Source: an uncultured Fibrobacteraceae bacterium
GTDB taxonomy: Bacteria > Krumholzibacteriota > Krumholzibacteriia > LZORAL124-64-63
NCBI GenBank assembly: GCA_964384825.1
Contig: CAYLMM010000005.1
Location: 4,417-68,416, forward strand
Direction: 5' to 3'
DNA length: 64,000 nucleotides
Every line of letters begins with the position of its first letter. Position 1 is the first letter of the stretch. The notes under the pieces were generated by a model. It was not told where the DNA came from. It saw nothing but the letters and a program-made list of their open reading frames with translations, and made no database searches. Below, in pieces: positions 32,680 through 46,034 of the stretch. Both the position numbers and the translations under genes were made by a program.

Positions 32680-34041
32680 GTGAAGACGGTTCTGGTCGTC
32701 GACGACGAAGCCGCCATCAGGCAGACGCTGTCCCAGTTGCTGACCTACGAGAAGTACCGCGTGCTGACCGCGCCCAACGGCCCGCAGGCCCTGGCGGTTC
32801 TCGACACCGAGCCGGTGGACGTGGTGCTGCTCGATATCAAGATGCCGGAAATGGACGGATTCGAGGTCCTCGACCGCATGTCGGCCGCGGGCCGCGAGAC
32901 GCCGGTCATCGTCGTCTCGGGACACGGGAACATCGAGACGGCGGTCGAGGCGGTCCGCAAGGGGGCCTACGATTTCCTCGAGAAGCCGCTGGACCGTTCG
33001 CGCTTGCTGCTGACTCTCGAGAACTGCCTGGCCCACAGCCGGCTCCTGGCCGAGACCGAGGACCTGCGCAACCGGACCGGCTTCTACGCTCCGCTGGTCG
33101 GCGAATGCCCGGCCATGGAGCAGGTCCGCGATTTCATTTCCCGCGTCGCGCCGACCGACGCCACCGTCCTGATCACCGGCGAGAACGGAACGGGCAAGGA
33201 ACTCGTCGTCCGCGCCATCCACGCCGCGAGCGGTCGCCGCGACCGGTCCCTGGTCGAGGTCAACTGCGCCGCCATCCCCCGCGAGCTGGTCGAGAGCGAA
33301 CTCTTCGGCCACGAGAAGGGCAGCTTCACCGGCGCCGAACGCAAGCGGATCGGCAAGTTCGAACTGGCCGACGGGGGCATCCTGTTCCTCGACGAGATCG
33401 GGGACATGAACCAGGAGGCCCAGGCCAAGGTCCTCAAGGCCGTCGAGGAGAGCCGCTTCGAACGCGTCGGCGGCGGCGAGCCCATCCAGGTCGACGTGCG
33501 GATCATCGCGGCCACCAACCGCGACCTCTCGGCGCCGGATTCCGGCTTCCGCCAGGATCTCTTCTTCCGGCTGAACGTCCTGTCGATCCATCTGCCGCCG
33601 CTGCGCGAGCGGGGCGACGACATCCCCCTGCTGCTCGATCATTTCATGACGGTCCTGGGAAGTCAGCTCAACCGTCCGCCCCGGAAGTTCGCGCCCGAGA
33701 CCCTGGCCCTGCTCAGGGAATATCCGTGGCCGGGCAACGTCCGCGAGATGCGCAACCTGGTCGAGCGCCTGCTGATCCTGGTCCAGGGCGACACCGTCGC
33801 TCCGTCGGATCTGCCGCCCATGCCCGGCCGCCCGTCCTCGCCCGACGGGGATTTCGGAGCCCTGTTCTCCAGCCTGGACTTCCAGGACTTCAAGGTCCGC
33901 GCCGAGTCCCTGTTCCTGCAACAAAAGCTCAGGGAAAACCGTTACAACGTGAGCCGCACGGCCGAGAGTCTCGGCATGCAGCGCAGCAACCTCTACAAGA
34001 AGATCACCAAGTACGGGTTGCGCACCGAACCCGAGGGCTAG
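32680..34041 (+). CDS. sigma-54-dependent response regulator (NtrC family: REC + AAA+ + HTH)
   Basis: Receiver '[12 protein letters not shown]...[10 protein letters not shown]', '[15 protein letters not shown]', a GAFTGA-like 'GSFTGA', and a C-terminal HTH. GGAGG lies 8 nt upstream of GTG 32680. Confidence 0.8.
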
Positions 34042-34224
34042 ACGCAACAGGTCGTGAAGGGATTGACAGGTGGTATCCTGCACCCTAGTTTGATAGAATA
34101 TCAGAGGGAGGGACTCCTCGTCCCCCAGATGAATCCGTCCTCCTGGAGGATGGACAGATCCCGAGCGATCGGGAGCCGGTTTCGAGAGCGTGTACAGTGC
34201 ACGTTCGTTACTACGGAGAGGGAA

Positions 34225-34548
34225 ATGAAGAAAGCATTATGTGCCATGACGATGGTCACTCTGGTGCTTCTTCCCGCTTTGGTGGCGACGCCCGCCTTCG
34301 CTTCCCCTGCCGTCCAGGTGATCAACCCGACAACCCAGACGTGCCCGCCGTCGATCGATGACTCCATCGACGGCCCGCAAGAGTACGGTCTGGACGGAGA
34401 TCCGGACGATGCCATCATCGGCAACAAGGGCAAACCCGTCATTAACAACACCAGTGGTGTGGTTTTGCCGCAGGGGATGCTGATCAACGAATTGCTGGAT
34501 TGCCTGTACGGCATGGCAGCCAGCATCGTGCAGGCGGTCGCCTTGTAG
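34225..34548 (+). CDS. small secreted Cys-containing protein (107 aa), low-GC relative to the genome
   Basis: GGAGAGGGAA RBS. Signal peptide 'MKKALCAMTMVTLVLLPALVATPAFA'. The mature ~80 aa is acidic ('DGPQEYGLDGDPDD') with two Cys. Local GC is clearly lower than in the flanking genes. Confidence 0.45.
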   Translation: MKKALCAMTMVTLVLLPALVATPAFASPAVQVINPTTQTCPPSIDDSIDGPQEYGLDGDPDDAIIGNKGKPVINNTSGVVLPQGMLINELLDCLYGMAASIVQAVAL

Positions 34549-34566
34549 AATCCTCTTCGGAGGATT
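34549..34566 (+). other. perfect 7-bp hairpin with TTCG tetraloop immediately after the stop of the small secreted gene
   Basis: 'aatcctc-ttcg-gaggatt' begins 1 nt after TAG 34546-34548. No U-tract follows directly; a T7 run sits about 38 nt downstream at 34604-34610. Confidence 0.4.
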
Positions 34567-44600: not shown

Positions 44601-45012
44601 GAGCGTCATGCGATGGCGCATCGACGGGTTCGCCGCCGGGCGCGAGATCTGGCCGCAGTGGGGAGGCACGCCGCTGCGCTCGGCCGCGGCTCCCGAAGCC
44701 GGCGGCGGACCGGGCGAGGGGGACGGGTTGCTGGCGCCGGGCGGCGGCATCTGCTATCCGAATCCGCTGGGCGCGGGGCCGCTGCACGTGCGCGCCGAGG
44801 CCCTCGTCGATTGCGAGATATCGGTGACGTTGTACAACCTGGAAGGGGAGGTCGTGGCCTCGCCGCCGTCGGTGACGGCGATCGCCGGCGATCCGATAGA
44901 AGTGCTGCTGTCCGTGGACGGGGCTGCTTCCGGCGTTTATCTTTGCCGGTTGGAAGCCCGCGCCGGGGGCCGTACCGAAAAGAGCATCCGTCCCGTCGCG
45001 ATCGAGCGTTGA
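41695..45012 (+). CDS. large secreted M6/InhA-like domain protein (no canonical HExxH seen) with repeat-rich middle and T9SS type-A CTD
   Basis: Signal peptide 'MRIKIFRALSLIAASLACLGAVDALA'. The N-domain 'AVVLLCVFADS...VVLIHAGAGEE' resembles the immune-inhibitor-A (M6) fold. The C-terminal 'ICYPNPLGAGPLHVRAEALVDCEISVTLYNLEGEVV...SGVYLCRLEARAGG' is a T9SS CTD. 1105 aa. Confidence 0.5.
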   Translation: MRIKIFRALSLIAASLACLGAVDALADTAAHPLAAASDRGFQRQLYRSAERLGLDGDPSLQAARLDGRGAPDSLNAVVLLCVFADSLFYSQDGPADQRQISLPFAPYAAHDSTFFDHQMRDVAAYFDAVSGGKFTFAFTIHPEFVELPRGMGWYGDNEEHGEYRAGLVEDSILGADADVDFSLYDTVVLIHAGAGEETDILGNSPEQIYSGYMGPDDFVAAVADTLLEVPYIETDDVMPGGEPARVRHVLVLPENEFQDSYMGYGGFYGSLGVYCFEVGLRLGMLSLSDATPAGVPDSQGIGNFGLMGYGLFVGAGYIPSHPCAFNKVLMGWLDPVAVDPAAGGFWNLPPVEGESGTCARVDISDREYWLLEYRLQDPDGNGIFSLPGDLNGNNIPDFYDDDGPDGWPVGYFDPAVDRREWLDGSEFDFYMSENSARAQGVKGAGSGLYIWHVDEGVIRDAFAGGERVFNSNAERKAVDLEEADGIQDLDTRVGTPFLLGGDDDAFRGEGAVRFGPDTRPSTATAGGAFTGLVLDSISPVVADSSHVPAGETAPVILYAPSMSFRCSVESVGIGDADLIAAVDLPGVDLTGMHPLAADLDVPADGTREIVLAGSGGRVFAFRADLSSLAAAPAERGLLALGTDADGEPAEWIGPPAVGDVDRDGRPEIVLAATTGLYVFNGEDGSEYADMDADTDSYGLMLPTADIVQPLLLLSRTDVPQFADIVLAMESDSGGASLMRVDVAGDGDVAMPLPEPAGSFAAPPVFWGGRLWALTVDDPGGALLQTADDVVALPAEPSGLRPLAVGDALLIPLIEGDAVLAVDPGDPRIRSWQGPALLSPPVPGVAFISEGAFNVCGVEGFPRTGWPRRPIDAVEPGPGAAAAGPAVIETAAGDPLYLFAARDGRLMLYDSRGEVPGNLSTLAGPGDAAGSPLMMDLGGDGGIDIVAAGSFPRLTGIDPDSGEPATEPSSSVMRWRIDGFAAGREIWPQWGGTPLRSAAAPEAGGGPGEGDGLLAPGGGICYPNPLGAGPLHVRAEALVDCEISVTLYNLEGEVVASPPSVTAIAGDPIEVLLSVDGAASGVYLCRLEARAGGRTEKSIRPVAIER

Positions 45013-45092
45013 GACGCCGCGACGAGGCTGCAGGCCGGACGACCTTCTCCCGGATACCGGGCGGCGGCGGCGGCGATGAGACAGGAAGAGAG

Positions 45093-46034
45093 ATGACGTC
45101 GAGAAACAGCGCGAGCCTTGCGACGGTCCTGATGGTCCTTCTGGCGGGGATCCTCGCCGCCGCGGCTCCCGCCGCTGCCGGCGGAGACCCCGGCGACGCC
45201 GGATTCCTGTCGCTGCGCTTCCCGGTCGGGGCGCGGGAGACCGGAATGGGCGGGGCGGGAGTGGGCGCGGCCACCGGCGCCGCGGCCGTCTACTGGAACC
45301 CGGCCCGTCTGGCCTTCGAGCAGAAGGGCACCGATCTGCTCCTGCAGCATCAGAGGCTCTACGATCTGTTCGACAAGGAAACGGCGATCGTGGCCCACAA
45401 GACCGGTTCCGGAGCGCTGGGATTCTTCTTCTCGGGATTCTATTCCGACGACATCGAACGCTACGGCACCGAGCCGGTGGGCGTGCCCGAGGGATCGTTC
45501 AATCCCCAGCAGGTGGCGTTCGGGGTCTCCTATTCGCGGATGTTGAGTTCCGATCTGGCTGCGGGCCTGACCGTGAAATACCTGCACGAGGAGATCGACG
45601 TCTACGACGGTTCGAGCTTCGCTTTCGACATCTCGGTCGCGCACAAGGCCGTCGTCGAGGGATTGTGGCTCGGCGCCTCGCTGCAGAACCTGGGTTCGGG
45701 GATCAAGCTCAACGAGGTGGAGTACGACCTGCCCGTGACCCTGCGGGTCGGCATGGCCTACGATCCCACCCTGCCGTTCTTCGCCGGGAACGTCAGCTTC
45801 GCCGCCGACGTCCTGGTGCCCAACGACGGCAACGAGAAGGCGCATGTCGGCGTCGAGTACCGTCTGATGGACGTCCTGTCGCTGAGGGCGGGGACCAAGA
45901 TCAACTACGAGTCCCAGGGGCTGACCGCCGGCGCCGGCTTCCGCCGCGGCCGGGTCGAGGTGGGCTACGCCTACGAAGACATGGAAAACGATCTCGACGA
46001 TTCTCATCGTTTCGTGGTCGAACTGCATTACTAG
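45093..46034 (+). CDS. PorV/PorQ-like outer-membrane beta-barrel (T9SS-associated family)
   Basis: AGGAAGAGAG RBS. Signal peptide 'MTSRNSASLATVLMVLLAGILAAAAPAAA'. 'FLSLRFPVGARETGMGGAGVGAATGAAAVYWNPARLA' matches the PorV/PorQ/UPF0164 N-terminal signature. The protein has an alternating beta-strand pattern and ends '...RFVVELHY'. Confidence 0.55.
   Translation: MTSRNSASLATVLMVLLAGILAAAAPAAAGGDPGDAGFLSLRFPVGARETGMGGAGVGAATGAAAVYWNPARLAFEQKGTDLLLQHQRLYDLFDKETAIVAHKTGSGALGFFFSGFYSDDIERYGTEPVGVPEGSFNPQQVAFGVSYSRMLSSDLAAGLTVKYLHEEIDVYDGSSFAFDISVAHKAVVEGLWLGASLQNLGSGIKLNEVEYDLPVTLRVGMAYDPTLPFFAGNVSFAADVLVPNDGNEKAHVGVEYRLMDVLSLRAGTKINYESQGLTAGAGFRRGRVEVGYAYEDMENDLDDSHRFVVELHY

Follow-up and report, generated by a model that had tools for sequence, protein, structure and literature searches.

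In a 64-kb stretch of the genome of an uncultured Krumholzibacteriota bacterium (64,000 nucleotides of contig CAYLMM010000005.1; hereafter, the window), the region from 32680 to 46034 holds what is probably a lineage-wide sigma-54 module, made up of a bacterial enhancer-binding protein (bEBP) with a TPR array and a GAF-like domain, a regulatory RNA driven by a first sigma-54 promoter (P1), and a two-gene unit, D-E, driven by a second (P2). At the level of sequence, the promoters, RNA structure, operon boundaries, gene order, and domain content of this module are all conserved among relatives. An original prediction, made from the letters of the region alone, had described it as a sigma-54 regulatory island; every feature listed there was found where it had been placed, between 32680 and 46034, and the central idea of a sigma-54 regulatory locus with two enhancer-binding proteins is supported both by the domains of the two proteins and by the conservation of the promoters. 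The features that matter for this reading are the following:

32680..34041, + strand: NtrC-type response-regulator bEBP (RR-bEBP), with REC, Sigma54_activat (GSFTGA), and HTH_8 domains from Pfam and NCBIfam matches
34063..34091, + strand: sigma-70-type promoter-like site, TTGACA-N17-TAGTTT, 5' of the small open reading frame (ORF)
34225..34548, + strand: small exported acidic protein, 107 aa, with a predicted signal peptide, a GDP(D/G)x motif, and a C-terminal hydrophobic helix
34647..37733, + strand: TPR-GAF bEBP, 1028 aa, with TPR matches, a GAF-like domain, AAA+ (GSFTGA), and HTH_8, and no receiver
37734..37944, + strand: AT-rich region 5' of P1, with the weakly conserved motifs CTGTAAA, AACTTGTTG, and TAACT...TTA (from k-mer counts and a consensus over 66 loci)
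37945..37960, + strand: predicted sigma-54 promoter P1, TGGTACggcacCTGCT, with GG at 37946-47, GC at 37958-59, and a predicted start at ~37970
37970..38310, + strand: predicted structured non-coding RNA of ~340 nt, with a core multi-helix domain (38029..38181) and a 3' three-way domain
38232-41 paired with 38293-301, + strand: outer stem of the RNA terminator, GGAAAGAGCC with GGGCTCTTT, followed by a U-run; predicted intrinsic terminator
38520..38535, + strand: predicted sigma-54 promoter P2, cGGCACggaccATGCg, with GG at 38521-22, GC at 38533-34, and a predicted start at ~38546, 40 nt before the start codon of D
38585..39586, + strand: D, a lipoprotein of 333 aa with an FN3 domain, a second beta-sandwich, and the lipobox VGGC; first gene of the predicted sigma-54 unit
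39622..41385, + strand: E, an exported DUF4384 protein with a Tyr/Trp-rich segment and a basic tail; second gene of the predicted sigma-54 unit
41399..41417, + strand: terminator-like hairpin just past the stop codon of E, from a consensus scan of the window

The conservation evidence presented below comes from 80 related loci of ~20 kb, gathered by an alignment-based scan with one genome per species; all are metagenome-assembled genomes of Krumholzibacteriota (several of them mislabelled), and statements about gene order cover those loci that are long enough to test. Exact matches trace the window sequence to groundwater-type metagenomes, and the names given to its homologs assign it to Candidatus Krumholzibacteriota. 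The segment between the TPR-GAF bEBP gene and D (37734..38584; hereafter, the gap) has a GC content of 0.51-0.55, compared with ~0.67 in its surroundings and in the GC-rich window at large, and gene calls are absent from it in three independent assemblies. P1 and P2 each show the GG-N10-GC pattern in a TGGCAC-N5-TTGCW-like context. P1 is the sole strict sigma-54 match in the window, where 0.83 such matches would be expected by chance, so that this one match alone is not significant. When both strands of the 80 loci (1.39 Mb) are scanned, 113 of the 137 strict matches fall on the + strand of the gap between the bEBP gene and D, and the other 24 are scattered. P1 keeps its GG in 69 of 69 loci and its TGC in 67 of 69, at a steady distance of 220-265 nt past the bEBP stop codon, while 66 of 67 orthologous gaps have a strict TGGYAY-N6-TGC site corresponding to P2, located 40-150 nt ahead of D. 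The same 80 loci show no conserved sigma-54 site before the RR gene, the small ORF, the bEBP gene, E, or the neighbouring genes F and G. This pattern marks both of the predicted -24/-12 elements, which the original prediction had put forward as sigma-54-like, as conserved sigma-54 promoters. The AT-rich region ahead of P1 may provide candidate enhancer or integration host factor (IHF) sites.

In an alignment of four gaps, the strongest conservation lies not at the promoters but in a block of ~340 nt that runs from ~25 nt past P1 to a stem followed by a U-run. A profile of this block (nhmmer) matches 75 loci exactly once each, without exception on the + strand and at the same place, and likewise matches the window once. 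The 67 distinct sequences are 335 nt long at the median, with terminators of the GGGCUCUUUU type at the end of nearly all of them. RNAalifold, applied to a plain MAFFT alignment, predicts 33 pairs, 29 of them compensatory. We also assembled a structure manually from a column-pair scan (nine helices, 53 pairs) and scored it on the same alignment. In this structure, 89.1% of cells are paired, compared with 76.4% in shuffled alignments and 38-56% when partners are slid by 1-3 columns; the proportion of paired cells is inflated, as the structure was derived from the sequences tested, whereas the compensatory pair-type count is unaffected. Double (compensatory) changes are found in 46 of the 53 pairs and in 516 cells (166 in the shuffles), and 0 of 500 shuffles reached the observed value on any of five measures. 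Scored with a covariance model built on the core (27 pairs), the window copy reaches 102.6 bits (E = 3.6e-26), with the rest of the 64 kb at noise level, and the window RNA folds with a minimum free energy z-score of -4.0. The unpaired loop motifs CAGGGA, ACCGGC, GGUGGGG, and GGCGAGA are invariant, and the last hairpin often carries a GNRA-type loop.

We thus have high confidence that the block is a structured non-coding RNA, with transcription predicted to begin at P1. It combines a predicted sigma-54 promoter and intrinsic terminator with the lack of an ORF and a position beside a bEBP gene, the marks of a regulatory small RNA (sRNA). The 850-bp low-GC non-coding stretch of the original prediction stands as far as its GC content and its two promoters are concerned, but it is not a mere spacer: a structured RNA gene lies between the promoters, and the low GC of the gap reflects regulatory DNA together with that gene. 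A search of Rfam 15 returned no family at its gathering score anywhere in the window and, at E <= 10, four chance-level matches to unrelated families, which speaks against a known family; by these comparisons the ~340-nt RNA is a new, previously uncatalogued one. We also discarded a hidden small ORF, as ORFs of 40-60 aa are equally common on both strands and any one frame is open across the core in only 5-8 of the 67 sequences. Pairing of the RNA with the 5' untranslated region of D was set aside as well: a single RNAduplex test gave an unrealistic full-length duplex, and the 5' untranslated regions of D are short and unconserved. Between the RNA terminator and P2 lies a spacer that is unconserved and 155-1354 nt long. 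In one relative (L026), an insertion sequence (IS)-like ORF on the - strand (11641-12456; 271 aa, resembling a zinc-finger IS transposase) sits in this spacer and widens the gap to 2.1 kb, leaving both the RNA unit and the P2 unit intact, which argues for two separate transcription units.

Both candidate activators possess the features that define the bEBP class, namely an AAA+ sigma-54 domain with a GAFTGA-type loop (GSFTGA, at residue 214 of the RR-bEBP and residue 792 of the TPR-GAF bEBP) and a C-terminal Fis-type helix-turn-helix (HTH); the PF00158 matches have E values of 1e-65 and 7e-63, and HTH_8 is matched in both. The first is an NtrC-type response regulator, as originally proposed on the basis of its REC, Sigma54_activat, and HTH_8 domains, and is kept in all loci long enough to test. 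None of the Krumholzibacteriota loci has a histidine kinase gene adjacent to it, whereas in Candidatus Eisenbacteria it has a HAMP-HisKA kinase partner. For the second, we built an AF2 model from 40 orthologs (predicted local distance difference test score, pLDDT, 82.6), in which ~13 TPR-like helix pairs (residues 24-530) are followed by an alpha/beta GAF-like domain (557-695), the AAA+ domain (720-965), and the HTH (979-1023). Its length of 1028 aa, its TPR array, its lack of a receiver, and the GAF-like domain of the model all agree with the original description, but the array spans ~500 aa rather than ~700. The window protein gives no Pfam GAF match at E <= 0.01; Pfam GAF_2 is matched by 19 of the 40 orthologs (best E 1.5e-7), the Eisenbacteria orthologs match PF01590 and PF13185, and the order of secondary structure at 557-695 in the model fits a GAF-like alpha/beta domain. 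Calling the domain of the window protein GAF-like is reasonable but not proven. A transmembrane helix at residues 683-700 was considered and rejected, as the AF2 model makes this segment the last helix of the GAF-like domain.

The unit behind P2 begins with D, whose ATG is preceded at 8 nt by AGGAG; an upstream ATG, at 38531, overlaps P2. The expectation of a lipoprotein with an FN3 domain is borne out by the VGGC lipobox, the Cys of which is conserved in at least 90%, and by an AF2 model (pLDDT 85.3) containing an FN3 domain, to which Foldseek finds FN3 matches, and a second beta-sandwich. E likewise proves to be a DUF4384 protein (51.8 bits against a cut-off of 27) of the extraordinary composition noted earlier, with its Tyr/Trp-rich stretch and a tail of 258 aa rich in Ser, Gly, Arg, and Lys with a net charge of +42. 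The two genes are 36 nt apart in the window and overlap in L090 and L091 (described below), and the pair is conserved in every context where both are present. Given the hairpin after E and a conserved sigma-70 promoter before F, the sigma-54 unit downstream of P2 is predicted to consist of D-E only, with F-G as a separate unit. The "secreted cargo set" of the original prediction is not a single sigma-54 unit: only D-E follow P2, and F-G stand behind a sigma-70 promoter in 51 of 58 loci. No PDB sequence relatives were found for D, E, or F.

Using the N-terminal 700 aa of the TPR-GAF bEBP as a query, we obtained 230 homologs, nearly all of ~1030 aa. In the large contigs of three of these (69%, 53%, and 47% identity) the neighbourhood is identical, including a gap of 840-970 nt 3' of the bEBP gene, and in large contigs the neighbourhood is kept across a bEBP identity range of 47-71%. 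When the window proteins are compared by tblastn with the 80 loci, the order Rrf2, RlmN (- strand), RR-bEBP, TPR bEBP, gap, D, E, F, G, LpxH-like gene (- strand) is found in every sufficiently long locus; the original prediction had named loss of this order in relatives as a result that would count against it, and the order held. The block is vertically inherited within Krumholzibacteriota, with its core also in Eisenbacteria, and is not an island.

Homologs of D reach Candidatus Eisenbacteria, where three loci (L087, L088, and L091) contain a small ORF with a signal peptide, a TPR-GAF bEBP, P1, a terminator-ended non-coding segment, P2, D, and a DUF4384 gene. The flanks of these loci are rearranged: the RR-bEBP is on the other strand with a histidine kinase, a Ppx-GppA gene has been inserted, and one locus has F while another lacks it. 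The non-coding segments are positional analogues of the RNA described above, each predicted to have a sigma-54 promoter and a terminator:

L087:9456-9793: positional-analogue RNA
L088:9389-9746: positional-analogue RNA
L091:5580-5770: positional-analogue RNA

All three share the 5' hairpin GGAGGGGGGGACCUCC, and two of them are 56% identical. Homology to the Krumholzibacteriota RNA was sought with nhmmer and with the core covariance model (filters off), which found nothing at the expected place, so that they count as positional analogues only; they may constitute a second new RNA family, of three sequences. D homologs are preceded by sites of the P2 type in Eisenbacteria, and likewise in two contexts unrelated to them. 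One of the latter (L090:2317-8399, from Logan SRR5574341, an unrelated lineage) has an sCache-PAS histidine kinase and an RR-bEBP directly 5' of D-DUF4384, with a 290-nt gap carrying the sigma-54 promoter TGGCACACAGGTTGCT (5958) and neither a TPR bEBP nor an RNA. The other (L089) has D alone with no bEBP nearby, and the sigma-54 promoter is still present. Among the five loci examined outside the phylum, the P1-driven RNA occurs only in the three that have a TPR-GAF bEBP. D, with or without DUF4384, is thus predicted to be sigma-54-dependent in every context examined.

From these features we infer which bEBP acts on which promoter, what kind of signal the activator receives, and a trans-acting role for the RNA. 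In the circuit that we propose, a sigma-70-type promoter would express the small acidic exported protein and the cytoplasmic TPR-GAF-AAA+-HTH activator. Once its sensor is triggered, the TPR-GAF activator would remodel sigma-54 RNA polymerase at the two promoters just 3' of its own gene; the neighbouring RR-bEBP may join or replace it, and would then constitute a second possible input. Firing of P1 would yield the highly structured, terminator-ended non-coding RNA of ~340 nt, and firing of P2 a two-gene mRNA for the FN3 lipoprotein and the DUF4384 envelope protein. By analogy with CrcZ, Qrr, GlmY, and Pxr, which serve their sigma-54 activators in this way, the RNA would most likely be the trans-acting regulatory arm of the response, with D-E as its structural envelope arm. 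The T9SS (type IX secretion system) cargo with an inactive M6 domain and its PorV-like partner would form a separate, sigma-70-driven unit.

The chief competing explanation is that the RNA acts in cis, as a riboswitch or attenuator in a leader for D-E: transcripts from P1 would stop at the terminator unless a ligand or protein stabilised an alternative fold, in which case read-through would give D-E a second input besides P2. The RNA does share its strand with D-E, which it directly precedes, its fold is complex, conserved, and terminator-ended, and two features of its sequence would allow switching. The invariant loop-and-stem sequence GGGGUC (at the GGUGGGG loop, 38150-38156) can pair with GGCUCU in the 3' strand of the terminator stem (38293-38301), a possible anti-terminator, and in the core a G-rich run (GAGG/GGGG) lies on either side of a CCUC segment, so that mutually exclusive hairpins could form. 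However, the anti-terminator pairing involves invariant bases only and is without covariation support; P2 is universal and lies 40-150 nt from D, making a distal leader unnecessary; the spacer between terminator and P2 is unconserved and varies from 155 to 1354 nt; and in L026 it even accommodates an IS-like gene in the opposite orientation. We consider a cis-acting leader unlikely on these grounds. Alternatively, the 340-nt block might function as DNA, as an enhancer or architectural array for P2, with P1 serving as a sigma-54 "parking" site. Enhancers for bEBPs sit 100-600 bp upstream of sigma-54 promoters. Orphan and intragenic sigma-54 sites are moreover reported to be common in E. coli (PMC4591121). 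But the conservation follows RNA helices (in the 516 double-change cells, against 166 after shuffling), the pairing collapses when it is slid by a single column, and the block starts ~25 nt after P1, always in the transcribed orientation, and ends in a canonical stem and U-run, all of which makes a purely DNA-level role extremely improbable.

The remaining alternative is that we are looking at mere conserved gene order in a shallowly sampled lineage, with the two bEBPs regulating genes elsewhere and other activators serving P1 and P2. Several of the points in its favour also weigh against the sigma-54 module as we propose it. The flanking housekeeping genes RlmN, Rrf2, and the LpxH-like gene are just as syntenic within the phylum, so that adjacency alone is weak evidence of a functional link. 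A common enhancer motif 5' of P1 and P2 is not clear, there being weak AT-rich motifs and no convincing dyad, and for lack of one the activator is not assignable to a promoter; in L089 a sigma-54 promoter precedes D with no bEBP nearby. No rpoN (RpoN box) is present within the 64-kb window, and the transcription starts and RNA ends used throughout are predictions. L090, in turn, is evidence that a bEBP can drive D-E with no RNA present, and the RNA of Eisenbacteria, not being detectably homologous to that of Krumholzibacteriota, suggests that the RNA may be a fast-evolving or replaceable element. Against gene order as the whole explanation stand the Eisenbacteria loci, where the flanks are rearranged and yet the small ORF, the TPR-GAF bEBP, the RNA, and D-DUF4384 stay together as a core, and L090 itself, where a different bEBP is again directly 5' of D-DUF4384. 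We accordingly give a coincidence of gene order little credence, and continue with the sigma-54 module as our working model.

The small ORF upstream of the TPR-GAF bEBP gene is annotated as a gene in three independent assemblies, and an ORF of 97-140 aa occupies its position in all loci long enough to test, with counterparts in Eisenbacteria. Its product has no Pfam or NCBIfam match. Among 73 orthologs, 67 carry the GDP(D/G)x motif, and the mature part is strongly acidic (mean net charge -10.6). The original description of a small secreted Cys-protein is right about the 107-aa ORF and its signal peptide, but the Cys is not conserved, 42 of the 73 orthologs having none after the signal peptide. 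The idea that it is a sigma-54-controlled product fails, since no conserved sigma-54 site lies 5' of it in the 80 loci; a TTGAC-N16-18-TAnnnT site 10-100 nt past the RR stop codon is found instead in 46 of 74 loci. This site, with its N17 spacing in the window, points to a sigma-70-type promoter as the driver of the small ORF and probably also of the TPR-GAF bEBP gene 98 nt beyond it. Use of the sigma-70-like site at 34063-34091 would give the small ORF a 5' leader of ~125 nt (window 34092-34224); the RNA core model gives a noise-level match only in this region (34178-34312, 11.2 bits). A resemblance between the GDP motif and the N-terminus of G (GGDPGDAG) was dismissed as coincidence, as the G orthologs keep xPG(D/E)(S/A)G(F/L)LSLR rather than GDP, and 12 of 50 match. 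In a bolder version of our proposal, the TPR array would bind as its ligand the small exported protein, a piece of that protein, or, when secretion is under stress, the precursor that has not been exported. The module would then be a circuit of the RRNPP kind that senses peptides or secretion and acts through sigma-54 in Gram-negative phyla of the Fibrobacterota-Chlorobiota-Bacteroidota (FCB) group, and its main output, a large regulatory RNA with tertiary structure and of a new class, would reprogram the cell envelope and the T9SS surface. We regard this as a long shot.

Downstream of E lies the second, neighbouring unit:

41613..41641, + strand: sigma-70-type promoter, TTGACG-N17-TATAAT, 5' of F, with 11 of 12 consensus positions
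41695..45012, + strand: F, a homolog of M6-like metalloproteases, inactivated, that contains an FG-GAP region and ends in a type A sorting domain of the T9SS (C-terminal domain, CTD)
45093..46034, + strand: G, a PorV/PorQ-family outer-membrane beta-barrel (NF033709; PDB 6h3i)

The promoter is conserved as TTGAC[GC]-N16-18-TAnnnT 5' of F in 51 of 58 loci, and F-G are a separate and probably constitutive unit. The original pairing of an M6-like T9SS cargo with a PorV/PorQ-like barrel is supported by the M6-like, CTD, and PorV/PorQ matches, but the enzyme itself appears inactive. F scores 162 bits against NF052323, far below the equivalog cut-off of 600, and its best NCBIfam name is "M6-like inactivated metalloprotease"; it has no HExxH and no HxxxH at all, the aligned site reading FEVGL, and from the absence of HExxH we predict a pseudo-protease. 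The type A CTD model TIGR04183 scores 18.3 on the full-length protein and 23.4 on the C-terminal 110 aa alone (cut-off 23), and 25 of 40 F orthologs have a type A CTD match. G, whose real start is 45093 and not 45078, scores 161.7 bits against NF033709 (cut-off 90), falls below the PorV, PorQ, and PorV2 equivalog cut-offs, and matches PorV of F. johnsoniae (6h3i; E = 2.8e-10); it is probably a shuttle or anchor for F. Elsewhere in the window, two proteins (874-2121, + strand; 2226-4133, - strand), one of them a GH32 glycoside hydrolase, end in FlgD_ig, a domain that often overlaps T9SS-type sorting tails in FCB-group genomes; these endings would suggest wider T9SS-like sorting in this genome.

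Several further observations concern the surroundings of the locus. The genes downstream of G (46041-52435) are envelope housekeeping genes, namely an LpxH-like phosphoesterase (- strand), an HtrA/DegP-type protease (47431-49029), an M23 peptidase (50046-50993), and an AMIN-Amidase_3-LysM amidase (51056-52435), so that the module is embedded in an envelope-maintenance neighbourhood. On the other side, a fused B12-binding, MeaB, and methylmalonyl-CoA-mutase gene (27494-30811, + strand; ~1076-1105 aa, IcmF-like) is syntenic upstream of Rrf2 in close relatives and absent from L006. In some relatives, RlmN is separated from the RR-bEBP or Ppx genes by a gene for a regulator of the ArsR/HTH_5 family (L005:7692-8039; L087/L088:3744-4410), which is absent from the window.

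The kind of system that we propose, in which a sigma-54 activator has an sRNA beside it and an operon as its target, is already known, and its closest precedents are pairs of a bEBP and an sRNA. In LuxO-Qrr (Vibrio), GlrR-GlmY (Enterobacteria), and Nla19/PxrR-Pxr (Myxococcus), an NtrC-family bEBP acts on the sigma-54 promoter of a terminator-ended regulatory RNA, and the sRNA gene adjoins the activator gene. Another such pair is CbrB-CrcZ of Pseudomonas, in which the CrcZ sRNA has a sigma-N promoter that is a direct target of activation by CbrB (PMC6296734), and which shares with the present locus an NtrC-family bEBP, a sigma-54 promoter, and a terminator-ended regulatory RNA adjoining the activator gene (PMC6296734). 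Compared with CrcZ, Qrr, GlmY, and Pxr, however, the RNA described here is larger and more intricate, with at least six covarying helices and a three-way 3' domain, and has no sequence or structure similarity to any Rfam family; neither CrcZ-like A-rich repeats nor a Qrr-like seed were identified in it. Its likely activator, moreover, has a TPR-GAF sensor in place of a receiver, and its host belongs to an uncultured FCB-group phylum.

A second likeness is to the RRNPP regulators of Firmicutes (Rap, NprR, PlcR, PrgX), in which, as here, a cytoplasmic TPR regulator lies beside, and is probably co-transcribed with, a small signal-peptide gene, an adjacency kept in Eisenbacteria. The differences are that the output here is a sigma-54 AAA+ activator rather than a simple HTH or phosphatase, that the small protein is ~80 aa when mature, with a motif that both phyla keep and a hydrophobic helix at its C-terminus, unlike a short, fast-diversifying C-terminal pro-peptide, that no peptide importer is encoded in the locus, and that the host is Gram-negative. 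The receiver-less or GAF-sensing bEBPs PspF (with PspA), NifA, NorR, and FhlA resemble the TPR-GAF protein in being controlled through an N-terminal sensor or partner rather than by phosphorylation, and in having envelope-related targets beside the activator gene; here, in contrast, a TPR array of ~500 aa precedes the GAF-like domain, there is no PspA-like partner, and the proposed targets comprise an RNA along with an FN3 lipoprotein and a DUF4384 protein. F-G, finally, recall PorZ-PorQ, PorU-PorV, and the type B CTD proteins with PorP-like proteins, in that a gene with a type A CTD is directly followed by one for a PorV/PorQ-family barrel. The association of T9SS cargo with PorP-like proteins and specialised shuttle proteins is a subject of PMC9143113 and PMC12618676. 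The pair F-G differs from these known systems in that F, an M6-like pseudo-protease, scores far short of the NF052323 equivalog cut-off, G far short of those of PorV, PorQ, and PorV2, and both are predicted to be sigma-70-driven and probably lie outside the sigma-54 unit. What is new is the RNA family, the use of a TPR-GAF sensor accompanied by a small exported protein, D-DUF4384 as targets, and the phyla in which the system occurs. Our literature search found nothing on the RNA, on sigma-54 in Krumholzibacteriota, or on this gene combination, in agreement with the earlier remark that the combination is not a described system.

The design of an activator gene followed by a sigma-54-dependent RNA also occurs in Myxococcota. 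It is known from Proteobacteria (PMC6296734), and would now extend to FCB-group phyla. The ~340-nt RNA family joins the short list of large bacterial non-coding RNAs, and as its promoter type and likely activator are known, there is a direct route to the conditions that would induce it. For DUF4384 and the FN3 lipoprotein, both of them uncharacterised, their predicted membership in a sigma-54 regulon in every context examined provides a first clue, and setting F-G apart from the sigma-54 unit prevents a wrong sigma-54 assignment of the T9SS cargo. Krumholzibacteriota and Eisenbacteria are without genetics; here, a conserved sensor is available together with two promoters and a set of outputs that are all defined, and the whole could be rebuilt in E. 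coli.

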